Below are positions 42,304-64,000 of a stretch of DNA of 64,000 nt, one piece after another (the first letter of the stretch is position 1; each line of letters starts with the position of its first letter). Made by a program: the position numbers and the translations under genes. The notes beneath the pieces were generated by a model that saw nothing but the letters and a program-made list of their open reading frames with translations, did no database searches and was not told where the DNA came from. Origin of the DNA: an uncultured Clostridium sp. (GTDB lineage Bacteria; Bacillota; Clostridia; TANB77; CAG-508); contig CAJMJN010000004.1 of NCBI GenBank assembly GCA_905213875.1, forward strand, positions 2,370 to 66,369, written 5' to 3'.

Positions 42304-42316
42304 ATTGAAAGCCCCC

Positions 42317-42946: not shown

Positions 42947-43016
42947 AGTACCCTCCTGCAACTTTTTGCTAACAGATTTTAAATATGAAGAAACTAATAG
43001 AGCTTATATTAAAACT

Positions 43017-43175: not shown

Positions 43176-43176
43176 T

Positions 43177-43464: not shown

Positions 43465-43520
43465 ATTGTTACCTCCTTCTAATATTAGGAGTCCTATTTT
43501 TTATATTCGATGTTGCATTT

Positions 43521-44461: not shown

Positions 44462-44490
44462 TTGTGTTTACATAATTTTAGTGATATAAT
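44462..44490 (+). promoter_or_regulatory. Candidate promoter of the Spo0A-like gene
   Basis: TTGTGT, a 17-nt spacer, then TATAAT (44485-44490), about 35 nt upstream of the ATG. Confidence 0.35.
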
Positions 44491-44525
44491 ATTGTTGATT
44501 TATAAAATTGTTAGGAGAAGTTATC

Positions 44526-45230: not shown

Positions 45231-45272
45231 CAGATAAGTTTTAGTATGATCAAAAACTTATCTGTTATTTTT
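45230..45272. terminator. Bidirectional terminator between the Spo0A-like gene and the radical SAM gene
   Basis: ACAGATAAGTTT...AAACTTATCTGT stem flanked by an A-run and a T-run, between convergent genes. Confidence 0.6.
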
Positions 45273-47480: not shown

Positions 47481-47492
47481 ACAATCACACTC

Positions 47493-48062
47493 CTATAAAA
47501 TTTTTCTTAATTCTATTTCAGCTTTCTTTATAAAATAATCATTTGTATCTACTGGAAGATTTAATCTTTCCAACTCTTGTTTTATTTTATCTATTGTATC
47601 TAATTGTTCATTTTCTTCAATCTCAATTAGCTTATCACCATTTAGTACATCTTTTATACATATTTGCAACTCATTTTTCTTATAAAGATAATCCATTTCC
47701 TTAATTTGCATAATTGCTTTATAATCAATTGCTTCTAAAAATTTTTTTCCATCATTTGAATCTATAATTTTACAATCAACTTTACTTTGTTTTACTATAT
47801 TTCCTTCTTGATCAATTTCTTTTTTCTTATATGTTAGTTTACTTTCTCTATATTTGTTTGGAATGTATCCTTCAACATTTCGTAAAATTATTGCTTTACT
47901 TAATATATCTCGTTCTGACATATTCTTTATATTAATTGTATTCGGTATATAATAAATATCGTCCAGTAAATATCTTTCTACAAATTGAAATCCTTTGCTT
48001 TCTAATATTTTGCATATTTCTTCTACAGTACATTTTAATTTGACTGTTATTTCATTACTCAA
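47493..48062 (-). CDS. CYTH-domain protein (CyaB / triphosphate-tunnel family), paralogue A
   Basis: 189 aa with a beta-rich pattern starting NEITVKLK (where ExExK is expected) and ending in a C-terminal helix. It is clearly paralogous to 63335..63925. Confidence 0.65.
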   Translation of the reverse strand: MSNEITVKLKCTVEEICKILESKGFQFVERYLLDDIYYIPNTINIKNMSERDILSKAIILRNVEGYIPNKYRESKLTYKKKEIDQEGNIVKQSKVDCKIIDSNDGKKFLEAIDYKAIMQIKEMDYLYKKNELQICIKDVLNGDKLIEIEENEQLDTIDKIKQELERLNLPVDTNDYFIKKAEIELRKIL

Positions 48063-49736: not shown

Positions 49737-50375
49737 TTAATATTTAAACATCAGATTTTCTATATCATTAATATTTTGTTTCTCATTAATTATTATTTTA
49801 AAAACTTCTGGTGCTTCAATTTGTTTATTAATAATTACTTTATCTTTAAATTTTAAACACTTTCTTTTTTCGTTATCAATATTTATCAGTTCGCACCATT
49901 TCATAAGTAAAAATATTATAGAAGCACCATGAGAAAAAATTGCAATTGTCTTACCTTTATTTTCATTAATTATATGCATAAAAGTTTTATACATTCTGTC
50001 AGTAACTTCTTTTCTGCTTTCTCCCTCTACATTTTTGATTTTTTCATCATAATATTGTTTCAAAGTTATATCTTCTGCATATTTAGGATTCCCATATTTT
50101 CTCTCATTTAAATTTCTATTAACATGAATTTTTTTATCCAACCTTTCTGCTAAATACTTTGCAGTTTGTATTGTCCTAACATAACTACTTGAATATATCA
50201 CATCTACTTTATCAAATTCCTTTTGTTTACTTAATATGTTTGCCTTTCTTTCTCCTTCTGCACTTAGTATTCTTTTTTCTCTAGTTATTTGATAATTCTC
50301 ATCATCATAGTATCTATCAATATATTTCATATCTAATTTTTCCGAGTGCCTAATTAAATAAACTATTGTGTTCAT
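49737..50375 (-). CDS. Histidine phosphatase family protein (phosphoglycerate-mutase-like)
   Basis: The RHSE motif (VYLIRHSEK) near the N-terminus and the SHGA motif (IFSHGASI) are typical of branch 1 histidine phosphatases. Confidence 0.8.
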   Translation of the reverse strand: MNTIVYLIRHSEKLDMKYIDRYYDDENYQITREKRILSAEGERKANILSKQKEFDKVDVIYSSSYVRTIQTAKYLAERLDKKIHVNRNLNERKYGNPKYAEDITLKQYYDEKIKNVEGESRKEVTDRMYKTFMHIINENKGKTIAIFSHGASIIFLLMKWCELINIDNEKRKCLKFKDKVIINKQIEAPEVFKIIINEKQNINDIENLMFKY

Positions 50376-50404
50376 ATCAAAACCTCGATTCTATATCTAA
50401 AAAA

Positions 50405-51571
50405 TCAATCTCTAAAATAAATATCTCTTGTATAAACCTTATCCATTACATCAGCTAATTCATCTTCTATTCTATTGGCAATTATAATCGAACTATTTTC
50501 TTTAAATGATTTTATATCCCTTACTATTTTACAATTTTTATAATTTTCATTTTCATATTGTGGCTCATATATTATTATGTTTTTGTTCTTTTCTATAAGC
50601 ATATCTATTATGTCAAATATAGCACTTGTCCTAAAATTGTCTGAATCTTTTTTCATTGATAATTTATATATGCCAATAATTTTAGGCTCTTTGCTTAATA
50701 TTTCTTTTACAATATGTTGTTTTCTTGTAGCATTACTATTCACAATCGCAGTAATAAGATTTTCAGGTACATCTTTGTAATTAGCTTTTAGTTGCTTGGT
50801 ATCTTTAGGTAAACAATATCCACCATATCCAAAAGATGGATTATTGTAAAAATCCCCTATTCTTTGATCCATGCATACACCTTCTATTAAATTTTTTGTA
50901 TTCAAGCCTTTTATTTCTGCATATGTATCTAATTCATTAAAATATGCAATTCTTAATGCCAAGTATGTATTAGAAAATAATTTTACAGCTTCTGCTTCTG
51001 TTGATTTCATAAATTTTATTGCTACATCTTTTTTTAATGAAGCTTTTTTCAATAACTCTGCAAACTTTTTCGCTTGTTCATTTTTATCTCCCAAAATAAT
51101 TCTAGATGGGTATAAATTATCATATAATGCTTTTCCTTCTCTTAAGAACTCTGGTGAAAATATAATATTATTCATGTTATGCTTTCTTTTCATTTTTTCT
51201 GTAAATCCTACTGGAACAGTAGATTTAATTATTATTGTTGTTGATATTTTCATATTTTTTATTTTTTCTATAATTTCTTCTACCAGAGAAGTATCAAAAA
51301 AATTATTTTTTTCATCATAATTTGTTGGCATACAAATTATAATGAAATCTGCGTTACAAAAAGCATCTTTATAATCTAATGTTGCTCTTAAATTTAATTT
51401 CTTCGTTCTTAGATATTTTTCTATATATTTATCTTCAATAGGACTTATTTTACTATTTATTTTATCCACTTTATCTTCTATAATATCTAATGCCACAACT
51501 TCATTATATTGACTTAACAATGTAGCCAAAGATAATCCAACATATCCTACTCCTGCTATTGCAATTTTCAT
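50405..51571 (-). CDS. ugd: UDP-glucose 6-dehydrogenase
   Basis: The start was chosen at MKIAIAGVGYVGLS (Rossmann GxGxxG) after AGAGGTG. The catalytic region is GFGGYCLPKD-like (SFGYGGYCLPKDTKQL). Confidence 0.9.
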   Translation of the reverse strand: MKIAIAGVGYVGLSLATLLSQYNEVVALDIIEDKVDKINSKISPIEDKYIEKYLRTKKLNLRATLDYKDAFCNADFIIICMPTNYDEKNNFFDTSLVEEIIEKIKNMKISTTIIIKSTVPVGFTEKMKRKHNMNNIIFSPEFLREGKALYDNLYPSRIILGDKNEQAKKFAELLKKASLKKDVAIKFMKSTEAEAVKLFSNTYLALRIAYFNELDTYAEIKGLNTKNLIEGVCMDQRIGDFYNNPSFGYGGYCLPKDTKQLKANYKDVPENLITAIVNSNATRKQHIVKEILSKEPKIIGIYKLSMKKDSDNFRTSAIFDIIDMLIEKNKNIIIYEPQYENENYKNCKIVRDIKSFKENSSIIIANRIEDELADVMDKVYTRDIYFRD

Positions 51572-51582
51572 ATTATTCACCT

Positions 51583-52635
51583 CTATTGCATATAATAATC
51601 TTTATACCATTTAGCAAATTTTTTTAATCCTTCTCTTAATGATGTACTTGGTTTAAAATTCATATCATCTTCCATTTGCTTTGTATCTGCATAAGTTATA
51701 GGTACATCCCCGGGTTGCATCGCCACTAATTCCTTATGAATTTCAAAATCATAATTTTGGGGTAAAACTTTTGCCTCAATTAATTCTTCTTGTAATATAT
51801 TAATAAAATCCAATAAATTTTCAGGTTGACCTTTTCCAATATTATATATTTTATATGGAGGTATTGGTAATCCATCTTCTCCGTTCTTTTTTATTGGAAT
51901 CTTATTTATTGTTCTTATTATTCCTTCTACTATATCATCTATGTAAGTAAAATCTCGTTCACATTTTCCATAATTATATATTTGAATTTTTTCACCATTT
52001 AATAGTTTATTTGTGAATTTAAAATATGCCATATCAGGTCTACCTGCTGGTCCATATACTGTAAAAAATCTCAAACCTGTTGTTGGAATATTATATAATT
52101 TTGAATAGCTATATGCTAAAAGTTCATTAGACTTTTTTGTTGCTGCATATAATGATACAGGCATATCTGTTTTATCATCTGTAGAATACGGTATTTTTTT
52201 ATTTACTCCATAAACAGATGAACTTGATGCATATACTAAATGTTCTATTTCATATTTTCTGCAACATTCTAATATATTATAAAATCCTATAATATTTGAT
52301 TGTATATATTCATCAGGATTAGTTATACTATATCTAACTCCTGCCTGTGCTGCCAAATTTACAACAATATCTGGCTTATATTTTTCAAATATCTGTCCTA
52401 TTTTTTCTTTATTCGCTATATCACATTTAATAAATTCAAATTTATCAAATTTTTGTAATTCTGATAGTCTATATTCTTTTAATTTTACATCATAATAATC
52501 ATTTAAATTATCAATACCTATTATATGTATCTTTTCATTTTTCAAATTTAATATTCTTTTTGCAAGATTTGCTCCAATAAATCCTGCAACTCCAGTAATT
52601 AAATACACTTTTATTTTATCGTTCACATTCTTCAC
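51583..52635 (-). CDS. NAD-dependent nucleotide-sugar epimerase (UDP-glucuronate 4-epimerase-like SDR)
   Basis: ITGVAGFIGANLA Rossmann motif, YAATKKSNE (YxxxK) catalytic motif and RFFTVYGPAGRPDMA, typical of the UDP-GlcA/Glc 4-epimerase subgroup. Confidence 0.85.
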   Translation of the reverse strand: MKNVNDKIKVYLITGVAGFIGANLAKRILNLKNEKIHIIGIDNLNDYYDVKLKEYRLSELQKFDKFEFIKCDIANKEKIGQIFEKYKPDIVVNLAAQAGVRYSITNPDEYIQSNIIGFYNILECCRKYEIEHLVYASSSSVYGVNKKIPYSTDDKTDMPVSLYAATKKSNELLAYSYSKLYNIPTTGLRFFTVYGPAGRPDMAYFKFTNKLLNGEKIQIYNYGKCERDFTYIDDIVEGIIRTINKIPIKKNGEDGLPIPPYKIYNIGKGQPENLLDFINILQEELIEAKVLPQNYDFEIHKELVAMQPGDVPITYADTKQMEDDMNFKPSTSLREGLKKFAKWYKDYYMQ

Positions 52636-53224
52636 TTTCCTTTATATCAACTCTCTCATCTATTCTTTTCAATATTTGATTTAATACTTGTTTTCTATTT
52701 TTAGATGTATCTATATACTCTATCCCATATTTAGGGCATTCTTTCTTTAATAATTGATTCTTCTCATTCCATTTGTCAGCATTTGTTGATAAATTCTCAT
52801 CTGATATTCCATATGTCCAATCTTTTTCTGTATCATATTCTCTACATAATTGCATAATTCCTTGTTTGTCAAGATCTCCATGTCCTAAACAAACACAAAT
52901 TAAATTTCCCATGTCAAGTAGTTCTTTTGCATATTTAGGCTCTAGTTGTCCACTTTCAAGAATAGTTCCATAATTTTTAGTATCTTGCTTTATGGAAGAT
53001 TTATAAATTTCTAATATAATCCTTTGAAATTTATCACTATGTACTAATTCTTTTCTTGCTTTTATGTTTTTAGTATAATATTCCTCTCTACCTGTTCCTC
53101 TTATTATTCCCCATATAATTGAATCTGCATGAATTATATTATACTGATTAAATTCATCTTTAATCATATTCCCTAATGTTGTTTTTCCCGCTCTTGCTAC
53201 TCCTATTATTAAAACATTTTTCAT
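52616..53224 (-). CDS. P-loop NTPase / small-molecule kinase-like protein
   Basis: Walker A GVARAGKTT at the N-terminus. About 200 aa. Its 3' end overlaps the start of the downstream epimerase gene by 20 nt. The substrate is unknown. Confidence 0.55.
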   Translation of the reverse strand: MKNVLIIGVARAGKTTLGNMIKDEFNQYNIIHADSIIWGIIRGTGREEYYTKNIKARKELVHSDKFQRIILEIYKSSIKQDTKNYGTILESGQLEPKYAKELLDMGNLICVCLGHGDLDKQGIMQLCREYDTEKDWTYGISDENLSTNADKWNEKNQLLKKECPKYGIEYIDTSKNRKQVLNQILKRIDERVDIKESEECER

Positions 53225-53245
53225 ATTAAATAAGTTCCTCCAATT

Positions 53246-54214
53246 TTATAAATATAAATTCATTTCATTTGAAAAGTCTTTTATTTCATCTTTATATTTT
53301 TGTGATATTACATCTGTATTAAAGTATCTATATATATCTAATAAACACTCATACATATTATCATCAAAATCAATTTTTTCACTATGTATTACTTTATTGT
53401 TTTGAATAATAGAAACATTTCCATCTTTTAATTTATTCAAATCTTTATCATAAAACAAAAATTCTCCTTTAATAACAATGTTATTTTCACATATAACAAT
53501 TACTTCCCTAATTTTGGTATTCGTTGCAAAATCACTCTCATGAATTACATAAACATCATTTTTCTTTGTAAAAATTTTACTATAGCCATGTTTTTCTAGT
53601 ATTCTATTTCCTCTTTCCATGGCTTTTTCTTCTTCAAGTAGCACTTGAGTATCTTTAGGATTATCTAGCAGAAACTGTGAAATATATACTTGATGTGGTA
53701 TATCATGTTCTATATTTCTTGTGACTTTTTTGTACATTCCCCTACCATTGAAGCTTTCTTCTGTCCTGTTTTTAGAAAAATTTGTATAAATAATAACTGG
53801 TTTTAATTCTTTTTGAACTATATATTCTTTAATTTTCATAACAATTTTTGAATACTCATAATTATGCACCATTGCGATATTTAAATCGTCATTTTCTTCA
53901 AAAAACTCCTTATTTACAATAAATGGTTTTTCGACCAATATATCTCTAATATTTAATTGTTTACATTCCATTATAATATCTAAAAATACACTTTTAGGAG
54001 TACATATATCAACAATAATATTGTTAACATCTAGTTTTTCTTTTTTTATTGTGCTTTCTATACTAGAATATACTTTTGAATCTTTTATATTTTCATTTTT
54101 TATTTTACCATCAATATCTACAAAATAAATTCTTCCTATTTTTTCAAACTTTTTATATGAATAATAATGCAAAAAACCTGCTTTTCCTGTTCCTACAATA
54201 ATTATATCTTTCAT
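53246..54214 (-). CDS. Gfo/Idh/MocA-family NAD(P) oxidoreductase
   Basis: N-terminal IIIVGTGKAGFLHY Rossmann motif and the EKP motif (VEKPF) characteristic of the family. Confidence 0.7.
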   Translation of the reverse strand: MKDIIIVGTGKAGFLHYYSYKKFEKIGRIYFVDIDGKIKNENIKDSKVYSSIESTIKKEKLDVNNIIVDICTPKSVFLDIIMECKQLNIRDILVEKPFIVNKEFFEENDDLNIAMVHNYEYSKIVMKIKEYIVQKELKPVIIYTNFSKNRTEESFNGRGMYKKVTRNIEHDIPHQVYISQFLLDNPKDTQVLLEEEKAMERGNRILEKHGYSKIFTKKNDVYVIHESDFATNTKIREVIVICENNIVIKGEFLFYDKDLNKLKDGNVSIIQNNKVIHSEKIDFDDNMYECLLDIYRYFNTDVISQKYKDEIKDFSNEMNLYL

Positions 54215-54228
54215 TTTTTACTCCTTTT

Positions 54229-55251
54229 TTACTCTAATAACTTTTTTGATATTTCATCTGCTTTTTTATATAAATCTCTACAAATATTAGTCCTATAAAA
54301 AGCAAACTCCAAATATTCATCTTTATTTTCTATATTTTTAAAATATTCACTATATCCAAATGTACTTCTTGCTAATTGTATCAAATATACATATGGTAAA
54401 TATTTAAAATCATATTCATTTAATTCAGTAAATTCTGCTACTTTTTTTGTATATTCAACTAAATTATCAACATCTATTTTTCCATCTTTAGCATCTTTAT
54501 CTATATAACTATAAGATCTAGCAATCTCCCAAACAATTGGTAATCTTTTTGTTTTAATAAAATCTAATATAACTCTTATTTTATCCTCATTATCATAAAT
54601 AAATTGTAAACTACTATAATCGCCATGTGATACTTTATGAGTTATATTCTTTATATCTTCTGCATTTATAGTTTTACTTAATTTAACTAATAATTCTTTT
54701 TTAAAAATAATATCCATTTTTATTTTTTCTGAAATTTTTGAATTATCCAATTTAGATAATATTTCATCATATTTTTTATTTGCTTTTTCAAATTCTTCGT
54801 TTGAATACCAATCTAGTATGTTAACATTATCATCTATCTTATAATTTTTAAATCCTTCTATAATTAACCCTAAATATCTTGCTGATTCCAATATTTGTTC
54901 ATGATTTCCTTTGTTTTTTTCAAAAACTTGTCCTTCTACAAATTTTTGAACCACTATCACTTTTCCTTTATGTACAAAATATAATTCATTGTTATTATTT
55001 TTTAAATATATTGGCAATGGAACTTGCGAATTTTTTCTTAAATATTCTATTGAATTTATTTCTTTTAAAACATTTTCTTTTGAATATTTTGACTGAAATT
55101 CTTTTACTATAAATTTTTCATTATTTGATATAATTTTAAATATATTTGCTGTTCCTTTATTTATTTTTTCTATTTTTTCAACCTTTATCCCATACTTTTT
55201 GTTCAGTTCTATTTGTAATTCTTTTTTAGAAAAAGTTGTTTTTTCAATCAT
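54229..55251 (-). CDS. APH/CotS-like phosphotransferase (protein-kinase-like fold), paralogue A
   Basis: N-terminal INKGTANIFKI...FIVKEF (Gly-rich loop and Lys), catalytic SHGDYSSLQFIY and ILDF metal-binding motif. It is paralogous to 61774..62820. Confidence 0.7.
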   Translation of the reverse strand: MIEKTTFSKKELQIELNKKYGIKVEKIEKINKGTANIFKIISNNEKFIVKEFQSKYSKENVLKEINSIEYLRKNSQVPLPIYLKNNNNELYFVHKGKVIVVQKFVEGQVFEKNKGNHEQILESARYLGLIIEGFKNYKIDDNVNILDWYSNEEFEKANKKYDEILSKLDNSKISEKIKMDIIFKKELLVKLSKTINAEDIKNITHKVSHGDYSSLQFIYDNEDKIRVILDFIKTKRLPIVWEIARSYSYIDKDAKDGKIDVDNLVEYTKKVAEFTELNEYDFKYLPYVYLIQLARSTFGYSEYFKNIENKDEYLEFAFYRTNICRDLYKKADEISKKLLE

Positions 55252-55253
55252 TC

Positions 55254-56024
55254 CTATATCTCCTCTAATTTTTTTATTATTTCTCTTTTATCTCCCCTGA
55301 CTTCAAAATTAAATATTTTACTTTCATCAATTTTACTCAAAAAACTTTTCACAAAAGTATTTGTATTATATAGTTCTACATTATCTGTAAATAAAGGCAT
55401 CATATAGTTCCAATAACAAAAAGGTGCTATATTTTTTACTATATAGTATTTGTTATTATTAATATCTATTTGTGTTTTTCCTTCATCGCATAAGCCTACT
55501 ATTCTAATTATTTTATTAATTTTTATTTCTTTTTTATATTGTTTTGTTTCCAAAGTTTTTATTTTCCCATTTTCTATATCAAAACTTGAGCCTAATTCTT
55601 GATACAAATCATTTTCTTTAAACTTTAGCCATGTTTGATCCGTTGAATTGATTTCATATCCATTATTTACAAACTCTTTTGCAAATGTTGATTTTCCTTG
55701 TCCAAATTCTCCAATAATTAATATTCCATCGTTCCCTTTACTAACTACCAATGAATGTACAAACATATTACTTTTGTCATTTATTATATATGCAATTACA
55801 TTATTAATAATAGGATATATATCTGTTTTTACTATTCTATTTTTTAATATTTTATAATCACCATTTATATTTATTTCAACTGATGTTTCATTAAATCTCA
55901 AATAATTATTGATTTCTTTATTGGTAACAATCTCAAATTGACTGAATCTTTTAAAAATATATTCATCATATTCATTACAATAGTTTATTACTTCTAAATA
56001 TTCATCTTTTATTTTATAAATCAT
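55254..56024 (-). CDS. HPr-kinase-C-terminal-like P-loop protein (short)
   Basis: HSLVVSKGNDGILIIGEFGQGKSTFAKEFVNNGYEINSTDQTWL parallels the HprK motif HG..v...g.GvLi.G.SG.GKS..a..L...G..l..DD. Confidence 0.5.
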   Translation of the reverse strand: MIYKIKDEYLEVINYCNEYDEYIFKRFSQFEIVTNKEINNYLRFNETSVEININGDYKILKNRIVKTDIYPIINNVIAYIINDKSNMFVHSLVVSKGNDGILIIGEFGQGKSTFAKEFVNNGYEINSTDQTWLKFKENDLYQELGSSFDIENGKIKTLETKQYKKEIKINKIIRIVGLCDEGKTQIDINNNKYYIVKNIAPFCYWNYMMPLFTDNVELYNTNTFVKSFLSKIDESKIFNFEVRGDKREIIKKLEEI

Positions 56025-57468
56025 ATTTTATTACCTCTATAAAATTTTCCTTATGCTCTAATATTTTTTCTATAATATCCTCTTGGACATGGTATACATT
56101 AACAAATGATATCAGATCTTTTTTACTATTTATTTTCAATAATTCTTCAAAAATTTTTCTTCTTTCTTCTATAGTATGTCCATTTAATTCATGACCACCT
56201 ATAAACATCAAATTTTTCCTATTAATATCTAATGGATTAATTAAATATTTTTCTTCTCTTGGAACACCTAATAAAATAATTTTAGATAAATTAGGTGCTG
56301 TTTCAACTATACTCTTAATAACTTCACTGCATCCTGTTGCTTCTATATATGTATCATAATCAAAATCATAGTCATCAACAAATTTTATATTTGAGTTATA
56401 TTCCTTATTTAATCTATTAATTGCTTCTGTCTGATATTTTTCAATTTTATTTGTTATTATTGATATATTTTTATAATTATTTTCTAATAAATACAACATT
56501 GCTGTAAAACCTATATTCCCTAGTCCTATTATTAAAATATTATCTTTTATTATATTTAATATAGGTTTTATTGTTATTGCTCCCATTAATTCAAATCTTG
56601 ATATTGCTATATTCTCAATAGAATATTTAGCTGAAATTTCAAATGAATCTTTATATGTATCAATATATTTGTCAAAATGTTTTGCTAATACCAATAGTCT
56701 TTTATTATTTTCTATTTTTGTTATACCTATATAACCTTTGCTACCTGCTTTTTCAGTTCCTCTTGAAACCACAGTGTATTCAATATCTTTTTCGGTTTGA
56801 TTTAATATTTTATTGATTTTTATATATTCTTCTTTAATATGATAGCCTATTTCATCAATGCTATGTGCATCACTTCCTACTGTATATCTTGTTCCATATT
56901 TTTTAAATAAATTCAACATATATTCTAATTGTTGTATATTCCATCTAGAACGATCACTTGTATTAATATCAAACATCAAATTTTTTTCAGTTGCTAATTT
57001 TACTATTTCTTCAATTTTTTCTTTATATTGTTCATACTCTTTTCTTAATTTTAAATGTCCTACAATATTAATTGGATAAGTTTTTATCATATCTATATTT
57101 GCTTGTAGATAATCTATGTAATTTACTTTTTCCATTCCATGTACTGAGCCTATAATATAATCGAATGGATAACTTTTTAATATTTTAATTTCTTTTTCTT
57201 TAAATTCTTCATCATACGAAAAATCACTTTCTATACCTGCATTAATTTCTATATCAGGATTATTTTCTTTTACAATTTTTATGTTTTCAAAAAATTTATC
57301 AATAACTTTGTTTTCATTTAAAACAGGGGTATGTTTTGGAGACATCCTATTTCCATGATCTAAAAATAAAACTCTATTTAATTTCATCTCCTTACATTTC
57401 TCTACATACTTTTGCATAATTGATATATCTGTTACACCTTTTTTTAAATGCATATGCATATCTTCCAT
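56014..57468 (-). CDS. Fusion of a PHP (histidinol-phosphatase-type) domain and an MDR-like Rossmann dehydrogenase domain
   Basis: The N-terminus has MHMHLKKG...FLDHGN...GSVHG...VGSDAHS metal-ligand motifs of the PHP family. The C-terminus has IIGLGNIGFTAMLYLLEN, a dinucleotide-binding motif, within an alcohol-dehydrogenase-like C-terminal half. Confidence 0.65.
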   Translation of the reverse strand: MEDMHMHLKKGVTDISIMQKYVEKCKEMKLNRVLFLDHGNRMSPKHTPVLNENKVIDKFFENIKIVKENNPDIEINAGIESDFSYDEEFKEKEIKILKSYPFDYIIGSVHGMEKVNYIDYLQANIDMIKTYPINIVGHLKLRKEYEQYKEKIEEIVKLATEKNLMFDINTSDRSRWNIQQLEYMLNLFKKYGTRYTVGSDAHSIDEIGYHIKEEYIKINKILNQTEKDIEYTVVSRGTEKAGSKGYIGITKIENNKRLLVLAKHFDKYIDTYKDSFEISAKYSIENIAISRFELMGAITIKPILNIIKDNILIIGLGNIGFTAMLYLLENNYKNISIITNKIEKYQTEAINRLNKEYNSNIKFVDDYDFDYDTYIEATGCSEVIKSIVETAPNLSKIILLGVPREEKYLINPLDINRKNLMFIGGHELNGHTIEERRKIFEELLKINSKKDLISFVNVYHVQEDIIEKILEHKENFIEVIKYDL

Positions 57469-57476
57469 AATTTTTC

Positions 57477-58919
57477 CTACTTTCTCTTGAAATAAAGATT
57501 ATAATATTCTTCAAGAATATTTGATTCATCAATCCACTTATCTACTATATCTAATTCTACTTGATTTCTTAAATCATCTTTTCCATTTATTATTTTATCT
57601 GTAACAACCAATTGACTCGCTTTAAATATATCATTTGATCTATTTGGAATAGCTTCAGAATCAAATAGATTTACTGACCTACCATTTCCTAATACCGTTA
57701 TCTTTTTACCATTAATTTCATATTGTGTACCATATTTAGGAATTGCCTTATATTTACATCCTTCTTTCTCATATTCTTTAAATATATTAAGGTCTGCTGT
57801 TGCTCCTGATGTAATAAATGTTCCATCTTCTAATTGTTCTATAACTTCTTTACTAATACTATTGTATCCACTTGCTCCCACAATAAGGAATGGTTTATCG
57901 TATTTTACTGCTTCTTCTAATGTTCTAAATGTTGTAAATCCTTTTTCTGCTGCCTCTATACATTTCATTACATCTGGTTCGATTACTATAATTCTTGCAC
58001 CATATTGACTGTATCTATCTGCTAAAACTTCTCCCAAATCACCATATCCTAATTGTATTACAGTTCTTCCAACTAATTTTTCACCTGCTAATAATTCAAT
58101 GCTTCGTGTAAAAATTGTATTTGCTATCTCCTTATATGTAATAAACCTTTTTAATTTTGATTTTGCAACATTTAATACTGGATAAGGTAATTCATTTTCC
58201 TTTAATTCACCTATTCTTTTTAATCCAGTTACAGTTAATTCAACAAATGCCTCGACATTTTCATAATTGTGCAATGTTAATATTCTTGATACTATCGCTC
58301 CATCATCTAAAATAACAATTTTTTTATCTTTTCTTTTGTCAATAAATTCTCTTATTAACCTTTTTCCATCTTCTATAAGAATATCATTTGCAACAGCTGT
58401 ATTATCCAAGACATCAACTTGATATCCTAATTTTTTAAATGTTGCCGTAATTTCTTGTCTATGTTTTGTACTATCTCCTTTATCTATTGCAAGTACATCT
58501 TCTGGTTTTACTCCCATTCTTACCATTGAAGTTAACAATCCAACATTTTCTTCTAAGAAATGATCTCTCCATATAATTGCTACTCCTTCGAGATTTTTCT
58601 TTCTTTCTTCTGAATATTTTTTTAAAATTGGCATTGTTTCTTCTATTGCTTCTATTTCTCTATCTGTATATGCAGTACAAATATCTTCTATTTTATTTGT
58701 TAATTCTTTATCATTTCCATCATAATTAATAATTGTTTGGTTTTCAACAAAATATGGAACAGAAAAACTTCTAACTCCAATATCTTTTTCTTCATATTTA
58801 ATGATTTCATTTTCTATTTTTATCTTATTTTCTTTCTCATTTATTTCAATACTTTTATTCAAATTTTTTTCTAAGTCCTTTACAAAATTATCAGCTATAT
58901 CATAATAAACTCTTTCCAT
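57477..58919 (-). CDS. Divergent S-adenosylhomocysteine-hydrolase-like NAD-binding enzyme
   Basis: The start was chosen at MERVYY after GAGGAG. ETMPILKKY...LEGVAIIWRDHFLEENVGLLTSMVRMGVKPEDV parallels SAHH MPGLM...LKGARI.G.LHMT.QTAVLIETL..LGAEV. GRTVIQLGYGDLGEVLADRYSQYGARIIVIEPDVMKCIEAAEKGF parallels GKVAVVAGYGDVGKG.A..L...GARV.ITEIDPI.ALQAAMEGY. Confidence 0.65.
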   Translation of the reverse strand: MERVYYDIADNFVKDLEKNLNKSIEINEKENKIKIENEIIKYEEKDIGVRSFSVPYFVENQTIINYDGNDKELTNKIEDICTAYTDREIEAIEETMPILKKYSEERKKNLEGVAIIWRDHFLEENVGLLTSMVRMGVKPEDVLAIDKGDSTKHRQEITATFKKLGYQVDVLDNTAVANDILIEDGKRLIREFIDKRKDKKIVILDDGAIVSRILTLHNYENVEAFVELTVTGLKRIGELKENELPYPVLNVAKSKLKRFITYKEIANTIFTRSIELLAGEKLVGRTVIQLGYGDLGEVLADRYSQYGARIIVIEPDVMKCIEAAEKGFTTFRTLEEAVKYDKPFLIVGASGYNSISKEVIEQLEDGTFITSGATADLNIFKEYEKEGCKYKAIPKYGTQYEINGKKITVLGNGRSVNLFDSEAIPNRSNDIFKASQLVVTDKIINGKDDLRNQVELDIVDKWIDESNILEEYYNLYFKRK

Positions 58920-58938
58920 TTTATATCTCCTCATATTA

Positions 58939-59724
58939 TTAAATTTTTATTTTTAATTTTTCTAAAATACTATAAAATAAATTTATAGATTTCAAAAATA
59001 ATTCCTGTTTAGTCTCTCCACTCTCATTCATAGGTAAATGTGTTTCAATTGAAATAACACCATCAAAGTTATCTCTTTTTATAATTTCCATAAATTTTTC
59101 AATTCCTATATCACCTTCTCCTAAATGAGCATATTTATTGGTCTTATTATCAAAATCCCTCAAATGTATATAAGTTATTCTATTTTTTGATTTTTCATAT
59201 TCTTCAAACACATTATATCCCTCAAGAAAAGCATTTGATAAATCAAATATTATATTTATGTTTTTTTCTTCTTGCATTAGATTAAAACAATCAACAGGAC
59301 TTTCAGCATAAGTTTTTCTTTCATTTTCCATTAGCAATTTTATATTTCTTTTTTCAGCCTTTTCACATAATCTCTTTAAATTTTCTTTTATTTCGTTTTC
59401 ATCAATATTTCTACCTAAATTAGAAAATATTCTTATATACTCACTCTCAAATATGTCACAAATATCTAAATAAATATCAAATAATTCCATTTTTCTTTCA
59501 TATGGTATCGGTTTCTTTCCAACTGGGCTATCTAATGTTATAACTTTTATATTTTCTCTATCCAAAATTTTCTTAAAATTTATTAACTCCTCTTTTGAAA
59601 ATTCCCACAAATACTTATCATCAATTTTTCTTAATTCAATATTTGAAATATTTGCTTTTTTTAAACTATCTATTTGTTCTTCAATAGATGTTCCTATTTC
59701 ATCTGCAACTACTGCCAATCTCAT
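58939..59724 (-). CDS. Sugar phosphate isomerase/epimerase (xylose-isomerase-like TIM barrel)
   Basis: 261 aa with alternating beta/alpha periodicity and the motifs ...IELR..., ...ENE..., ...IHLRD..., ...ISIETH typical of the AP_endonuc_2/IolE-like family. Confidence 0.7.
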   Translation of the reverse strand: MRLAVVADEIGTSIEEQIDSLKKANISNIELRKIDDKYLWEFSKEELINFKKILDRENIKVITLDSPVGKKPIPYERKMELFDIYLDICDIFESEYIRIFSNLGRNIDENEIKENLKRLCEKAEKRNIKLLMENERKTYAESPVDCFNLMQEEKNINIIFDLSNAFLEGYNVFEEYEKSKNRITYIHLRDFDNKTNKYAHLGEGDIGIEKFMEIIKRDNFDGVISIETHLPMNESGETKQELFLKSINLFYSILEKLKIKI

Positions 59725-59727
59725 ATT

Positions 59728-60801
59728 TTATTCCTCCTCTAACATTTTTAAAATTTCTTCTACCTTAGTATTTACACCATATTTTATTTTTTTTATTTTC
59801 ACCTCTTTCATTATTTTTTCATTTAATCTACTTTTGCAATCTAAAATTATTTTTTCACTTGTTTTTCTTTTTCTTATCCAGGGCTTTCGTAAAGATTCTG
59901 TATCATTTGGTGTAAAATTAGTTATTTCTAACAATTTTTTTTCTTCAACTTCTGACATTTCTAAAACTTCTAATTCTTTTGTATTTATATCAAATCTTGG
60001 ATATATTATATAATCAAGTTTTGTTCTTGCTTTCATTTCTGTATAATCAAAAACTTTTGCAACATCAGTTAATGGAGTATTACAATCAATGTTATTTTCA
60101 GCTTCTTCATAATTAAGTTTTTTTCTTCTTTCTAGTATTTTATTATCTATAAAATACTGATTTAATCTATTATTATTTTTTACCGTTCCCATTGCATAAG
60201 TAACAGCTTGTGGAAAATAATCCATTTGTAAATTTTCATTTACAAACACTCTATCATTTGAAAGAAATCCTTTTATTTCATTCAATTCTAATAATTTAAC
60301 TGCTAAAGTTGTTTTTCCACTTCCACTTGTCCCTAATATCATAATTCCTTTATTATGTATTTCTAGTGCAGTACCATGCATAAAGAAATATCCTTTATCT
60401 TCTTTCTCTCTTAAATATAATTCTCTTATTATTCTAACAATCCAATTTGCTGAAGTTTCTGTGTTTTCTTTTACTATTATTTTGTAATTTTTCTCATCAA
60501 TTTTATTTCCTATGTATTCTTGTGTATCAACTAAATAATAATACTCATTATTTAGTTTCACTTCTTTATGTTTTTGGTTTTTAAAACTATCATAAATAAT
60601 ACCTATACTATCATTTATTAAATTTAGCATTTCAAAAAACTTTTTTGAATCTACTATATATTCAATTGTTATTGTTTTTTCTGTATTTTTTTCAAAGGTT
60701 ATTATTGATTCGTTAATTTTCTTTATAACCTTTTCATAATTTTTCTCATCTACCTTAATATTAAAATTAATATCAGGCAAATTGCATTCTATATTTTTCA
60801 T
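59728..60801 (-). CDS. HPr-kinase-C-terminal-like P-loop protein (long)
   Basis: FMHGTALEIHNKGIMILGTSGSGKTTLAVKLLE...GFLSNDRVFV matches the HprK/P catalytic-core pattern. It also has an N-terminal ~140-aa domain I do not recognise. Confidence 0.6.
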   Translation of the reverse strand: MKNIECNLPDINFNIKVDEKNYEKVIKKINESIITFEKNTEKTITIEYIVDSKKFFEMLNLINDSIGIIYDSFKNQKHKEVKLNNEYYYLVDTQEYIGNKIDEKNYKIIVKENTETSANWIVRIIRELYLREKEDKGYFFMHGTALEIHNKGIMILGTSGSGKTTLAVKLLELNEIKGFLSNDRVFVNENLQMDYFPQAVTYAMGTVKNNNRLNQYFIDNKILERRKKLNYEEAENNIDCNTPLTDVAKVFDYTEMKARTKLDYIIYPRFDINTKELEVLEMSEVEEKKLLEITNFTPNDTESLRKPWIRKRKTSEKIILDCKSRLNEKIMKEVKIKKIKYGVNTKVEEILKMLEEE

Positions 60802-61694
60802 ATTTCAATTTCATCTCCATCATAAACATCTTTAATTCTGTTCTTTTCTATGCATTTAGATAATATTGTCATTTTATAATGATGTTCCTTTTCAGTTCCG
60901 TCTTTTGATAATCCACCTAATTTAACATTAGGTTTCATTATTTCCCCATGAAAGTCTGAGCCACCACTTATTAGTATATTTTCTCTTTTGGCTAACTTTA
61001 AATATCTCTTTATATCACTTAATGTATGTTTAGAATTAAATATTTCTATTCCATCTATTCCAGCATTTTTAAACATTCCAAATATATCCTCTATATTAAC
61101 TCCATATGTTCTTTCTAATGAAATTGGATGTGCCAAAACAGCATATCCTCCTGCCAAATGTATTGTATTAATTGCTTGTTCTAAAGGTGCAGTTGCAGGT
61201 GTCTTTAAGTCCATATATTTAAAATAATGGTCAAATGCATATTGAGTATTTGGAATAATTCCCCCTTTAGTCAACAATCTTGCTATCGTAGTTTGTCCAA
61301 CAAAATTTTTAGCTGTTAATAGTTTTTCAGTTTCATCTTTCGATATAATAATTCCAAATTTTTCTTTCAACTGTTGTATTATCTCTAAATTTCTTAAATT
61401 TTTTCTCATTTTCATATTCTGAAGTAATTGTACTAATTCCGTATTATTAACATCAATGTTATAACCTAATATATGCATTTTATAATCATTTTTTTCACAA
61501 GATATTTCAACACCAGGAATATATACTAATCCTCTTTTATCTACATTTTCCATTGCTTTTATGCTTTCTATATTATCATGGTCTGTAATTGAAAATATAT
61601 CTATTCCACACTGTCTTACTTTTGATACAATTTCTTCTACAGAATAATCACCATCTGAAAATTTTGAATGTATATGTAAATCATATTTTTTCAT
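60798..61694 (-). CDS. PHP-domain phosphoesterase (TrpH/YciV-like)
   Basis: YDLHIHSKFSDGDYSVEEIV...ITDHDN...HILGY...LAHP...GGSDFHG is the full set of PHP metal-ligand motifs in the order seen in nucleotide 3',5'-bisphosphate phosphatases / RNase AM. Confidence 0.85.
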   Translation of the reverse strand: MKKYDLHIHSKFSDGDYSVEEIVSKVRQCGIDIFSITDHDNIESIKAMENVDKRGLVYIPGVEISCEKNDYKMHILGYNIDVNNTELVQLLQNMKMRKNLRNLEIIQQLKEKFGIIISKDETEKLLTAKNFVGQTTIARLLTKGGIIPNTQYAFDHYFKYMDLKTPATAPLEQAINTIHLAGGYAVLAHPISLERTYGVNIEDIFGMFKNAGIDGIEIFNSKHTLSDIKRYLKLAKRENILISGGSDFHGEIMKPNVKLGGLSKDGTEKEHHYKMTILSKCIEKNRIKDVYDGDEIEI

Positions 61695-61773
61695 TTATAG
61701 TCCTCTTTCTAAAAAAAGATACAAATAAAAAACTCTACAAGCTATTTATTTGTATCCTTTGTGGTTTACTTTA

Positions 61774-62820
61774 TTATACTTTAGTATAACCATTAACTTC
61801 TTTCTGTAATCTTGTACTTATTTCTTTTGAATTGTTATATAAATATCTACACAAATTAGTTCTAAACAATGCAAATTCTAGTAAGCCTTTTTTTTCGTAA
61901 TCATCATTATATTGCTTATAACCAAATGGGCTACTTACAATTTGAATTAAATATAATTGTGCTGCATATTTTAAATCATACTCATTTAATTGCACATATT
62001 TTGCAAATTCTTTAACATATTCAACTAATGTATCTATATTTAACTCTCCATTTTTTGCTTCTTCATCAATATAACTATATGATCTCAATACTTCCCAAAT
62101 TATTGGTAGTTTTTTTGCTGTTTCAAAATCAATTACAGTTGTCTTACTATTGTCATTATAAATTAATTGTTGAACACTATAATCTCCATGGCTATTCATT
62201 ATTGTCATCTTTTTAATTATTTCAAAATCAAAATTGTTTAGCAAATCCTTTGACATATTTATTTTGTCTTGTAGATCTTTTTCAAATTTTTCTCTATATG
62301 GATTATCTAGATTTAATTTATTTATTAAATCTTCCATTTTTATTATTCCATTTTCTAAACTTTCTTTTGAAAACCATTTTTCTATTATTCCATCTTCCTC
62401 TAAACCTTCGTAATCCTTCAATTCTTTTGTCATTTTTCCTAATATTTTTGCACTCTCAATTGTCTTTTGATAATCACCTGTATTATTTTCCATTGTATAT
62501 CCATCTATACACTCTTGTAAAATTATTATTCTATTTTCAAACTTAATATAAAAACTATTTTGTCTTGATTTTATATAAACAGGAACATTTATTCCTCTTC
62601 CTTTTAAAAAGTTAATTATATTGGTTTCTTTTATTACTGATTCTTCTGTTCTTCCTTGGCTAAATTCCTTTAAAATATATACTTTGTCATTGGATTTGAT
62701 TTTAAATATATTTGCTGTGCCTCTATTTATTTTTTCAATATCCATTATTTCTATGCCATAATTTTTATTTATCAAATCCTTTATAATCTGCTCATTTAAA
62801 TTAGATTTTTGAATTCCCAT
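61774..62820 (-). CDS. APH/CotS-like phosphotransferase, paralogue B
   Basis: INRGTANIFKI...VYILKEF, catalytic SHGDYSVQQLIY and VIDFE motifs. It is collinear with 54229..55251. Confidence 0.7.
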   Translation of the reverse strand: MGIQKSNLNEQIIKDLINKNYGIEIMDIEKINRGTANIFKIKSNDKVYILKEFSQGRTEESVIKETNIINFLKGRGINVPVYIKSRQNSFYIKFENRIIILQECIDGYTMENNTGDYQKTIESAKILGKMTKELKDYEGLEEDGIIEKWFSKESLENGIIKMEDLINKLNLDNPYREKFEKDLQDKINMSKDLLNNFDFEIIKKMTIMNSHGDYSVQQLIYNDNSKTTVIDFETAKKLPIIWEVLRSYSYIDEEAKNGELNIDTLVEYVKEFAKYVQLNEYDLKYAAQLYLIQIVSSPFGYKQYNDDYEKKGLLEFALFRTNLCRYLYNNSKEISTRLQKEVNGYTKV

Positions 62821-63335
62821 TATCTTTCTTCCTCCAATTCTTTTTCTTTTAACATTTTTATAACAAAATCGCCTGACGGTGCTATTTCTCCTTTATTATA
62901 TAAACAAACATATTCATCTAGTGAAATCCATTTTGACTCAATTACTTCTCCATCATTATAACAAATATCTCTTTTTGCTATATCTCTTTTAAATTTCCAT
63001 ACATCCCTAAAATAATTTTTTTGCTGTATTGTCCCTAAAAATTTTCCTTCTTCTTGTGTAAAGTCAATTCCAATTTCTTCTTTTATTTCTCTTATTGTAG
63101 CATCTATGGAACTTTCTCCTGCTTTTGCAGAGCCTCCTGTGCATTCCCATAATCCTGGATATAACTTTTTGTTTTTATTTCTTCTAGTTATTAAAATTTG
63201 TTTATTAGAATTTTCAACAATTCCAGTAACAACAATGTGATATTCTCCATTTTTTAGTCGTTCATCACTATCTCTTTGTATTGTCTTATTTGTTCTATTT
63301 CTAAATTTATCGTAAACATCCCAGTATTCACTCAT
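62820..63335 (-). CDS. NUDIX hydrolase
   Basis: Nudix box GGSAKAGESSIDATIREIKEEIGI (GX5EX7REUXEEXGU). The start overlaps the CYTH gene stop and the stop overlaps the kinase start. Confidence 0.85.
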   Translation of the reverse strand: MSEYWDVYDKFRNRTNKTIQRDSDERLKNGEYHIVVTGIVENSNKQILITRRNKNKKLYPGLWECTGGSAKAGESSIDATIREIKEEIGIDFTQEEGKFLGTIQQKNYFRDVWKFKRDIAKRDICYNDGEVIESKWISLDEYVCLYNKGEIAPSGDFVIKMLKEKELEEER

Positions 63336-63925
63336 TAAAATTCTCCGTTCTTTATTTTTTCTAATTCTTCTTCTGCTTTTTTTACAAAATAATTGGAATT
63401 ATCAAATGGAATGTTTGTATTATTTATCTCTTTCTTTAATTTTTCTACTGTCCTATATTCCTTGTTAGTTTCTGCCTCAATTAAGATATTATTTTCAGAC
63501 AGTATTTTTACTATAATTTTAAAGTCTCCTTTATAATATGAGAAGTGTTTTTCTTTTATGGTCATGATTTCCTTATATCCTATGCAATCAAATATATTTT
63601 TCGCATCTTGAATATTTAACACTTCACAATTTATAGCATCCTGTTGCAGAATTTCTCCTTTTTCATTAATTTTCTTATGTTTAAAAGTAATTTTCATTTT
63701 ATGTTTGTTACTTGAAATCCCTTGAAATTCCCTTAATATAATTGCTCTGCTTAAACTCTCTCTTGTTGTGACTTTAAATATATCTATATCTTTGGGTATC
63801 ATAAAAATATCTTTTGCATAATATTCATTATTTAAGATAAATTTATCTTTAGCTAATATTTTCTTTAGCTCAACTTCAGAACATTGTACTCTTACTGTAA
63901 TTTCATTTTCTTCTTTAAATCCCAT
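63335..63925 (-). CDS. CYTH-domain protein, paralogue B (first visible gene of the long operon)
   Basis: The start was chosen at MGFKEENEITVRV. It is collinear with 47493..48062 (AIILRE/AIILRN, IEAETNKEY/IEIEENEQL, NYFVKKAEEELEKI/DYFIKKAEIELRKI). Confidence 0.65.
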   Translation of the reverse strand: MGFKEENEITVRVQCSEVELKKILAKDKFILNNEYYAKDIFMIPKDIDIFKVTTRESLSRAIILREFQGISSNKHKMKITFKHKKINEKGEILQQDAINCEVLNIQDAKNIFDCIGYKEIMTIKEKHFSYYKGDFKIIVKILSENNILIEAETNKEYRTVEKLKKEINNTNIPFDNSNYFVKKAEEELEKIKNGEF

Positions 63926-64000
63926 AACTATATTCCTTTTCTTTTTTCTTAAATTATAACATAAAGCAACATTTTTTACCACATTTTAACATTTTTATTA

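Follow-up and report, generated by a model that had tools for sequence, protein, structure and literature searches.

The 64,000-nucleotide stretch of contig CAJMJN010000004.1 analysed here (the window), from an uncultured Clostridium sp. (assembly GCA_905213875.1), carries a packed block of fifteen minus-strand genes, g01 to g15, that runs from position 63925 down to 49737. These genes are a real, selected and horizontally mobile metabolic cluster, probably for the biosynthesis of a nucleoside or sugar-type compound around a set of core enzymes that has not been described, and they are carried as cargo by a mobile element inserted in the sporulation gene spoIVA. If this reading of their function holds, the block represents an unrecognised small-molecule pathway in a frequently sampled uncultured Clostridium of the human gut, with a core that it shares with Streptomyces that can be cultured and genetically manipulated, S. 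clavuligerus with its plasmid pSCL4 among them. The core genes are without a name in current annotation resources, and their combination of enzymes was not found in the literature searched. The genes of the block, with the evidence for each assignment and the one RNA feature between them, are as follows:

63335-63925, minus strand: g01, CYTH / triphosphate tunnel metalloenzyme (TTM) fold, 196 aa (structure model only)
62820-63335, minus strand: g02, NUDIX hydrolase (Pfam NUDIX E 2.6e-15; NUDIX box GX5EX7REUXEEXGU intact)
61774-62820, minus strand: g03, APH/CotS-fold kinase 1 (Pfam APH E 6.7e-10; HGD motif)
61709-61760, minus strand: AU-rich hairpin (21 predicted pairs) with a run of seven U after it, in the one sizeable spacer of the block, between g03 and g04 (fold dG -18.8 kcal/mol, z -3.5)
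60798-61694, minus strand: g04, PHP phosphoesterase of the TrpH / adenosine 3',5'-bisphosphate (pAp) phosphatase / RNase AM type (NCBIfam and PDB matches)
59728-60801, minus strand: g05 ('HprK1'), P-loop kinase with a two-domain fold of the mini-PEPCK (phosphoenolpyruvate carboxykinase) / HprK (HPr kinase) type (sub-threshold Pfam match; AlphaFold2 and Foldseek)
58939-59724, minus strand: g06, xylose-isomerase-like TIM barrel (Pfam AP_endonuc_2, E 9.9e-27), a core gene
57477-58919, minus strand: g07, divergent NAD enzyme like S-adenosylhomocysteine (SAH) hydrolase (SAHH), the marker gene of the cluster (AdoHcyase_NAD E 1.8e-12; alternative start of the open reading frame at 58934)
56014-57468, minus strand: g08, HisJ-type PHP phosphatase fused to a Rossmann dehydrogenase (Pfam PHP and Glu_dehyd_C; NCBIfam HisJ family)
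55254-56024, minus strand: g09 ('HprK2'), small PEPCK/HprK-fold P-loop protein, a core gene (Hpr_kinase_C E 1e-3)
54229-55251, minus strand: g10, APH/CotS-fold kinase 2 (Pfam APH E 6.4e-8)
53246-54214, minus strand: g11, divergent Gfo/Idh/MocA-like oxidoreductase (invariant EKP motif; weak PDB matches; homologues and fusions match GFO_IDH_MocA)
52616-53224, minus strand: g12, small Walker-A protein resembling nucleoside monophosphate (NMP) kinases (Walker A motif; weak adenylate kinase match)
51583-52635, minus strand: g13, extended short-chain dehydrogenase/reductase (SDR), similar to UDP-glucuronate (UDP-GlcA) 4-epimerase (Pfam Epimerase E 6.5e-56; YxxxK motif, as YAATK)
50405-51580, minus strand: g14, UDP-glucose 6-dehydrogenase (three UDPG_MGDP_dh domains; GGYCLPKD motif)
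49737-50375, minus strand: g15, histidine phosphatase of branch 1 (Pfam His_Phos_1 E 2e-22; RHS motif)

The listing of open reading frames (ORFs) contains exactly fifteen on the minus strand across this interval, joined by overlaps of up to 20 bases or spacers of up to 29 bp and interrupted by a single larger gap of 79 bp at 61695-61773, which is the arrangement that an earlier note, made from the sequence without database searches, had described. No transmembrane segment was found in any of the fifteen proteins, and no glycosyltransferase, transporter or aminotransferase is encoded in the window copy; the earlier note's list of absences is accurate for this copy, though variant clusters elsewhere contain glycosyltransferases. 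Its description of a single operon stands in so far as the genes are co-directional and nearly touching, but the hairpin and seven-U run in the gap may be an internal terminator or attenuator, with the ribosome-binding site of g04 lying after both, so that the block is perhaps two transcription units (g01-g03 and g04-g15) or is internally attenuated. An extended -10 element, TGTTATAAT, at about 63953-63961 directly upstream of g01 is a putative promoter element, in a window of about 25% G+C where such scans are uninformative (136 sigma-70 sites were returned against 133 expected). A search of 38000-64000 against Rfam gave no match and hence no riboswitch clue to a ligand.

All fifteen genes are under purifying selection, with a ratio of non-synonymous to synonymous substitution rates (dN/dS) of 0.06-0.29 for each gene against orthologues in two other species. 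The lowest values of the fifteen belong to the genes for the TIM barrel, the SAHH-like enzyme and the Gfo-like enzyme (0.09 for g06 and 0.06-0.09 for g11). The catalytic motifs of the respective families are intact by motif check, apart from a degenerate ExExK motif in g01 and the loss of several SAHH residues in g07.

The conservation of the cluster was surveyed with one genome per GTDB species, family counts being taken over 26 non-redundant loci after all ORFs of each locus had been mapped onto the fifteen window proteins. The SAHH-like gene occurs in 24 GTDB species, all of them represented by uncultured metagenome-assembled genomes (Clostridia, Clostridium sp., Lachnospiraceae, Erysipelotrichaceae and Bacilli) from human, rabbit, goat, chicken and rumen samples; two more contigs that carry it are labelled Muribaculaceae and are most likely misbinned. 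Around this gene, present at 26 of the 26 loci, the TIM barrel is found at 25, g08 at 24, HprK2 and APH each at 23 and the Gfo-like enzyme at 22, followed by the first PHP protein (18), UDP-glucose dehydrogenase (17), HprK1 (15), NUDIX (14, with a second type at 8), CYTH and the SDR (9 each), g12 (6) and the histidine phosphatase (4). Within the window clade g01 to g14 or g15 keep an identical order down to about 50% protein identity, and Bacilli-type loci have g04-g11 together with a nucleoside diphosphate (NDP)-sugar dehydrogenase. The minimal form of the cluster consists of NUDIX, APH, NUDIX, PEPCK-like kinase, TIM barrel, SAHH-like enzyme, dehydrogenase, HprK2 and Gfo-like enzyme, and a decorated form adds a GT1 glycosyltransferase, two GT2 glycosyltransferases, a hexapeptide acyltransferase, an AMP-binding ligase, a HAD protein and alpha/beta hydrolases.

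Beyond these gut and rumen lineages, a tblastn search of plasmids found homologues of 34% identity (268 bits) on Streptomyces linear plasmids, pSCL4 of S. clavuligerus among them. Two annotated Streptomyces records contain a 907-aa fusion of the SAHH-like and Gfo-like proteins in a seven-gene operon with a divergent XRE regulator alongside, its partners being three HprK/PEPCK-like proteins, a dehydrogenase like the C-terminal part of g08, a TIM barrel annotated 'AP endonuclease' and an APH phosphotransferase. One example of this Streptomyces core lies at positions 37312-46106 of NZ_CP109456. Fusions between cluster members recur elsewhere: TIM::SAHH (protein P0202), SAHH::Gfo (P0212, P0232 and P0235), HprK1::APH (locus L031) and Gfo::GT2 (L003). 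What emerges is a core of eight functions: the TIM barrel, the SAHH-like and Gfo-like enzymes, the Rossmann dehydrogenase that forms the C-terminal part of g08, PEPCK/HprK-fold kinases (two or three) and one APH kinase. This core is common to two phyla, in gut and rumen Clostridia and Bacilli and on Streptomyces plasmids. The phosphatases, NUDIX, CYTH, the UDP-sugar enzymes and, elsewhere, the glycosyltransferases are lineage-specific additions. In the window lineage these additions are of nucleotide-trimming types (TTM protein, MutT-like NUDIX, pAp-phosphatase-like PHP, HisJ-like PHP, histidine phosphatase and NMP-kinase-like P-loop protein), together with a supply of UDP-GlcA and UDP-galacturonate (UDP-GalA) through UDP-glucose dehydrogenase and 4-epimerase. 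The phosphohydrolases that the earlier note had weighed alongside the phosphotransferases are accordingly no part of the conserved core, whilst the neighbourhood itself, whose lack of conservation the earlier note had named as grounds for abandoning a common function, is strongly conserved across the 24 species and the Streptomyces plasmids.

In several lineages the cluster is bordered by LysR or XRE regulators, LysR in the Bacilli-type loci; no precursor peptide or conserved extra gene was found in the flanks, which differ among species, and a set of apparent conserved small ORFs was rejected as antisense artefacts inside the SAHH-like gene. In one 1.46-Mb assembly (ERZ28759094 contig_4387; L034:12535-15875) g05 and the SAHH-like gene are in fragments, which are probably assembly errors of an indel-prone long-read assembly or strain-specific decay. 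At L029:9409-16316 a minimal cluster has RhuM and a Wadjet-like locus (DUF2397/DUF2398/SbcC-like) as its immediate neighbours. More remote SAHH-like domains (P0271, P0343 and P0348) occur in fusion with PRTase-CE, a STAND-type AAA ATPase and HTH_17, architectures that by their domain content resemble conflict or immunity proteins.

The domain labels first given to the fifteen proteins held on profile and structure annotation with two refinements, namely that g05 has a mini-PEPCK fold and that g01 is detectable by structure only. The marker enzyme, g07, is 480 aa long, as are all of its homologues. It scores 107 bits against the ahcY equivalog TIGR00936, below the cut-off of 497.6, and about 80-92 bits against SAHHs in the PDB, of which the archaeal and Thermotoga-type enzymes align over both domains. 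By profile alignment it keeps the NAD-binding GxGxxG motif (as GYGDLG) and the equivalents of Asp131 (in a DDG motif) and Lys186 (K257), all of them invariant; H120 is also invariant, its equivalence to His55 being assigned by motif inspection only, as the printed alignment begins at residue 202. The SAHH residues Asp190, Asn191, His301 and His353 are replaced by Thr, Tyr (Y262), Thr (T374) and Ile (I424), and invariant basic residues have been introduced around the catalytic lysine, from which we infer that the substrate is phosphorylated. These features fit an NAD-dependent transient oxidation carried out on a substrate different from SAH; the description of g07 as a divergent SAHH-like enzyme therefore survives for the fold and the NAD site but not for several of the substrate residues. 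Close homologues in the databases number 176, none named and most from gut metagenomes, and an exhaustive profile search over 1.84 billion representatives returned 112 proteins at E <= 1e-30, the TIM::SAHH and SAHH::Gfo fusions among them.

The two proteins first read as HprK-like, g05 and g09, do have a P-loop in an HprK/PEPCK-type fold, but both are below the gathering score of Pfam Hpr_kinase_C (28.4 and 19.2 bits respectively, against 33.3), and the full-length match of the g05 model is to PEPCK. That AlphaFold model has a predicted local distance difference test (pLDDT) score of 94.2, and its best Foldseek match is ATP-dependent PEPCK (E ~1e-7, about 380 columns, both domains), whereas HprK/P matches in the P-loop half only (E 6e-5); at the profile level g05 scores 46 bits against HprK_rel_B. 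The pair carry the Walker A motifs GTSGSGKT and GEFGQGKS, and Walker A and a downstream S-N-D-R motif are conserved between their family and PEPCK/HprK. On the predicted structure g05 resembles a PEPCK-type small-molecule kinase, a fold that argues for a small-molecule rather than a protein substrate. By extension g09 can be grouped with it on weaker evidence, namely a P-loop segment in common with g05 and weak PEPCK_ATP matches in its homologues, which also match Hpr_kinase_C at 1e-4. Alongside these likenesses, g05 has some 170 residues fewer than PEPCK, to which it is 9-12% identical; it falls below the Pfam thresholds of both the PEPCK and HprK families, and the operon offers neither an HPr-like partner nor an oxaloacetate-type context: no gene for HPr or the phosphotransferase system is present in the window cluster or any related locus. 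Many homologues of g05 (also L029:3093-4076) bear the precomputed Pfam label PF27840 'ScmC', which was not traced in the Pfam copy searched or in the literature and whose origin might point to a related system.

Among the other core proteins, g11 has no Pfam match in its window version and a weak PDB profile match to Gfo/Idh/MocA (E 0.003); one homologue reaches 20.8 bits against GFO_IDH_MocA, whose threshold is 24, and the fusion partners reach 22.7-32.8 bits. The dehydrogenase half of g08 belongs to the core, its PHP half being separate or absent elsewhere (split in L003, L029, L030 and Streptomyces). Turning to the additions of the window lineage, g01 drew no Pfam match even at E 10, and the CYTH label given to it is right at the level of the fold as modelled: the AlphaFold2 prediction (pLDDT 91.9) matches the TTM protein 7ns9 in Foldseek (E 2e-9, query-normalised template modelling score 0.70) as well as class IV adenylate cyclases. 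Its ExExK metal-binding motif is degenerate (E8-I-T10-V-R12, with T and R in place of E and K), and within the cluster it is restricted to the window clade, at 9 loci; the g01 family as a whole, at 728 homologues, is far larger than the distribution of the operon. The NUDIX protein g02 is closest to NTP pyrophosphohydrolases of the MutT/NudG/NudI type, with sub-threshold NCBIfam matches to MutT and NudG, and g04 scores 167 bits against the NCBIfam 3',5'-nucleoside bisphosphate phosphatase, below its cut-off of 400, with PDB matches to 3e0f, 7ug9 and 2yb1 and best relatives that include RNase AM and the pAp phosphatase Cv1693. No Pfam match was obtained for g12, which is clade-specific (6 loci). 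The SDR protein g13 has as its nearest PDB entries 5u4q (384 bits), the B. cereus UDP-GlcA 4-epimerase 6zl6/6zla (157 bits) and MoeE5 (110 bits), and is thus closest in sequence to UDP-GlcA 4-epimerases, its predicted activity. At 332 bits g14 exceeds the cut-off of 189.8 for TIGR03026, a generic NDP-sugar dehydrogenase subfamily, and at 526 bits it stays below the cut-off of 757 for the equivalog PRK15057; every other NCBIfam match among the operon proteins was sub-threshold.

Taken together, we consider it an even call that the operon directs the cytoplasmic biosynthesis of a phosphorylated small molecule from a nucleoside or nucleotide-sugar (uronic acid), with each chemical step put forward as a prediction. 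In such a pathway the SAHH-like enzyme, with tightly bound NAD, would transiently oxidise a ribose- or sugar-type hydroxyl and so make the adjacent positions reactive towards elimination, addition or epimerisation. Net redox steps would fall to the Gfo-like enzyme and the Rossmann dehydrogenase, and the TIM barrel would isomerise, epimerise or dehydrate (by elimination) the keto intermediates. Phosphates added by the PEPCK-like and APH kinases would act as activating, leaving or protecting groups, and in the window lineage NUDIX, the two PHP proteins, the histidine phosphatase and CYTH would take off nucleotide or phosphate handles. Five independent components indicate intermediates of the nucleotide or nucleotide-sugar kind: the fold of the SAHH-like enzyme, the MutT/NudG-like NUDIX, the pAp-phosphatase-like PHP, the TTM protein, and the pairing of UDP-glucose dehydrogenase with UDP-GlcA 4-epimerase. 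Biosynthesis is favoured over catabolism or glycan assembly because variant clusters include glycosyltransferases, an acyltransferase and an AMP-ligase, because no transporter, membrane protein, nucleotidyltransferase or polymerase is present, and because the cluster is patchily distributed and carried on mobile elements or plasmids; nor is there a catabolic hydrolase in the window cluster. The proposal made in the earlier note, of a nucleoside, nucleotide, sugar or cyclitol-type compound that is phosphorylated and dephosphorylated, is in keeping with these five components as regards substrate class, but the stepwise chemistry is something that we infer from gene content.

Several observations weigh against biosynthesis from a nucleoside or nucleotide-sugar. 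The Streptomyces core has none of the nucleotide-handling or UDP-sugar genes, which may therefore serve a side function, and the window copy has neither a glycosyltransferase to use UDP-GalA nor an exporter. With the equivalents of D190, N191, H301 and H353 lost, g07 may not bind a nucleoside at all. HprK-family kinases of other systems act on proteins or peptides, and the relative that adjoins a Wadjet-like locus, together with the fusions of SAHH-like domains to STAND ATPases and PRTase-CE, is compatible with a role in conflict. A more specific version of the biosynthetic proposal, which we put forward tentatively and regard as doubtful, is that the trio of TIM barrel, SAHH-like and Gfo-like enzymes with the mini-PEPCK-type and APH kinases is an undescribed module for building phosphorylated metabolites of a new class, nucleosides or nucleoside-uronic acids, which highly prevalent uncultured Clostridia would make in the human gut. 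The module would be spread between species by a spoIVA-interrupting element, and its product would act as an antimetabolite, antiviral or signal. A possible route would have an SAHH-type 3'-keto-4',5'-ene captured by a keto-uronate enolate, or the enolate trapped as an enol phosphate. If the general biosynthetic proposal holds, it would mean new chemistry for three folds (SAHH, PEPCK/HprK and AP_endonuc_2) and would point to a nucleoside or sugar phosphate of the gut as a candidate bioactive compound.

Other explanations must be set beside the biosynthetic one. The operon might provide an activated sugar of an unusual kind, made from UDP-GlcA or UDP-GalA as a nucleotide-sugar or sugar phosphate, that glycosyltransferases encoded elsewhere would attach to a surface or spore glycan, S-layer protein, pilin or flagellin. 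The presence of UDP-glucose dehydrogenase at 17 of 26 loci and UDP-GlcA 4-epimerase at 9, GT1 and GT2 in variant clusters with one Gfo::GT2 fusion, a spore-forming host and CotS-like kinases of a spore-coat-associated type would all suit this explanation, and APH-fold enzymes include anomeric sugar kinases; it is nonetheless unlikely, as neither the window cluster nor any relative has a nucleotidyltransferase, flippase, polymerase, polyprenyl-phosphate transferase or membrane protein, the Streptomyces core is free of NDP-sugar genes, and NUDIX, pAp-phosphatase-like PHP and CYTH proteins are atypical of glycan precursor pathways. Equally, one might read the block as a catabolic or salvage pathway, in which an imported nucleoside, nucleotide or glycoside would be cleaved by oxidation and elimination (SAHH-like, Gfo and TIM) and its fragments then phosphorylated. 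No version of the cluster includes a transporter or binding protein for such import, three or four kinases alongside five phosphohydrolases would be futile in catabolism, and the anabolic UDP-sugar enzymes, the variants with glycosyltransferases, acyltransferase and AMP-ligase, and the rare, patchy distribution on mobile elements and plasmids all speak against it, which leaves this pathway improbable despite LysR or XRE regulators beside the cluster in several lineages and familiar enzymatic precedents: pairs of Gfo/Idh/MocA and AP_endonuc_2 TIM-barrel proteins act in oxidative cleavage of C- and O-glycosides and in inositol catabolism, and methylthioribose kinase belongs to the APH-fold kinases.

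A conflict or defence system, either making a modified nucleotide or nucleoside analogue directed at phage or competitor replication or serving directly as an anti-phage island, would overlap with the biosynthetic proposal if the product of the latter were antiviral. Carriage of the operon by a mobile element, in a variable island whose cargo is rearranged from strain to strain, is what one might expect of it, as are the Wadjet-like neighbour of one relative, a restriction endonuclease beside a Streptomyces copy, and the distant SAHH-like fusions to STAND-type ATPases, PRTase-CE and HTH_17. Yet a PADLOC-DB v2 scan of ten operon proteins yielded no defence system, with matches confined to a generic NUDIX (PDC-S07) and weak P-loop and PHP hits; a scan of IMG/VR and a tblastn search of phage records with the SAHH-like protein found no relative beyond true SAHH. 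The operon encodes no sensor, nuclease or abortive-infection effector, and its 8-15 metabolic enzymes are far above the size of known nucleotide-based defence systems, so that a defence role is also improbable. The simplest alternative of all, an accidental juxtaposition of unrelated housekeeping or decaying genes, can appeal to domain families that are each common alone and to the one long contig with g05 and g07 in fragments, but gene order is kept across 24 species and two phyla, fusions are multiple and every gene is under purifying selection; this explanation is refuted by the conservation analysis, and the probability left to it is negligible.

Searches of Pfam, NCBIfam equivalogs, PADLOC, PDB, Rfam and the literature gave no match that would assign the gene set to a known pathway or defence system, in agreement with the earlier note, which had been unable to place it in any described biosynthetic, catabolic or defence system; a paper on Ara-A and PenF contained nothing relevant to it, and a conflict-systems paper from the Aravind laboratory makes no mention of SAHH, HprK or PRTase. 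The thuringiensin, angustmycin and herbicidin clusters have individual enzyme types in common with the operon and were rejected as matches on their defining components. The herbicidin core contains a uronic acid. In the assembly of the herbicidin and aureonuclemycin core (Her4-Her7 / AnmB-E) an SAHH homologue clustered with two oxidoreductases builds a nucleoside core (PMC6794829). The operon is alike by enzyme type, pairing an SAHH-like protein with a Gfo-like enzyme, a Rossmann dehydrogenase and UDP-GlcA enzymes, but neither it nor the related loci have a counterpart of the radical-SAM protein Her6/AnmE, and methyltransferases and acyl-loading enzymes are missing from the operon, just as PEPCK/HprK-fold kinases, APH, PHP, NUDIX and the TIM barrel are missing from the herbicidin clusters. 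Angustmycin biosynthesis (AgmA-F) combines sugar-phosphate epimerase, kinase and phosphatase steps with the SAHH-like AgmF, which carries out a redox-neutral transformation with bound NAD (PMC8599513). The likeness to the operon lies in nucleoside-type pathway enzymes (epimerase/isomerase, kinase, phosphatase and SAHH-like); the differences are that the dehydratase AgmF keeps every SAHH catalytic residue (H56, D129, K184, D188 and H299; PMC8599513) whereas g07 is without the D190 and H301 equivalents, that the operon has no PRPP-synthetase-like or phosphoribosyltransferase genes, and that AgmD is an AlsE-type epimerase and not an AP_endonuc_2 protein like g06. Thuringiensin, from the thu cluster of Bacillus thuringiensis, is a Firmicute metabolite of adenine nucleoside, sugar acid and phosphate (PMC4147579). 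Both thu and the operon encode a UDP-glucose dehydrogenase (g14) and a small P-loop kinase (shikimate-kinase-like in thu; g12), but thu needs glycosyltransferases, a non-ribosomal peptide synthetase module and a glucose-6-phosphate dehydrogenase, and has no SAHH-like, TIM, Gfo, PEPCK/HprK-fold, APH or PHP protein.

The operon is cargo of an element of more than 35 kb that is integrated in spoIVA. The features that define the left part of this element are:

37748-39037, plus strand: spoIVA, interrupted at about 38967 after codon ~403 (...ATAPSIH), the left element junction (by comparison with contig L040)
38842-42303, minus strand: a tandem pair of large serine recombinases that lies at the element's left end (Pfam Resolvase, Recombinase and Zn_ribbon_recom)
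46605-48062, minus strand: a co-directional pair, a CYTH paralogue of g01 (47493-48062, 40% identical) followed by a LysR regulator (46605-47480)

The window ORF of spoIVA encodes the ATPase and middle domains only and runs into the convergent gene for a large serine recombinase, whereas a metagenome scan found a SpoIVA of 493 aa in 74 of 80 relatives. Contig L040 is 99.5% identical to window positions 31747-38967 and has an intact spoIVA of 493 aa; the window diverges from it right after ...ATAPSIH, and nothing of 38968-64000 is present in L040. The 3' fragment of spoIVA that would mark the right end of the element was not found in the window, in the 9.4 kb beyond it (contigs L034-L036) or in any locus, so that the insertion exceeds 35 kb and the operon lies inside it. 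The element has also moved: between L077:203-7453 and window positions 37645-44896 the spoIVA flank is 78.9% identical and the element part (38968-44896) 99.6%, with insertion at the same codon, which indicates recent transfer between species, and in a third species (L047) a 68%-identical recombinase occupies the same spoIVA site. The host is a spore former, with SpoIVA and SpoVA genes present, and is very commonly sampled, being among the more frequently sampled uncultured gut Clostridia. Counts of assembly-index blocks that contain the exact protein (2612 for NUDIX, 1589 for the recombinase and 114 for the seryl-tRNA synthetase allele) suggest greater uniformity or a wider spread of the element than of its host's backbone.

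No paper describing an intervening element in spoIVA was found in the literature, and the carrier seems to be a new instance of a mobile element dividing a sporulation gene. It is like the skin, SPbeta and gin-type elements of sigK, spsM and gerE (PMC5025042, PMC4191935, PMC5595907) in being inserted in the coding sequence of a mother-cell sporulation gene, in having large serine recombinase genes at its end and in the occurrence of intact alleles in related strains; it may also excise from spoIVA. It differs in its target, in its two tandem recombinases, in its fifteen-gene metabolic operon as cargo and in that about 35 kb of it showed no phage structural genes. Whatever the product of the operon, this element is of interest in its own right for splitting spoIVA, for the size of its metabolic cargo and for its recent passage between species.

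The remaining cargo of the element comprises regulatory genes (XRE, LysR, a receiver-like protein and a radical-SAM protein with a receiver-like C-terminal domain) and accessory genes (penicillin-binding protein (PBP)/beta-lactamase, VanZ, GNAT and an adhesin) whose order is rearranged between strains. The radical-SAM protein, which comes after the CYTH-LysR pair and is the nearest of its kind to the operon, is encoded at 45272-46465 by a gene of the element that is not conserved with the cluster. Upstream of the operon and past the end of the window, at L034-L036:4400-8200, genes for PBP/beta-lactamase-like, VanZ, GNAT/YoaP, DUF5301 and DUF2651 proteins are reordered or missing among three contigs of the same species, and this region is a rearranging accessory part of the element.

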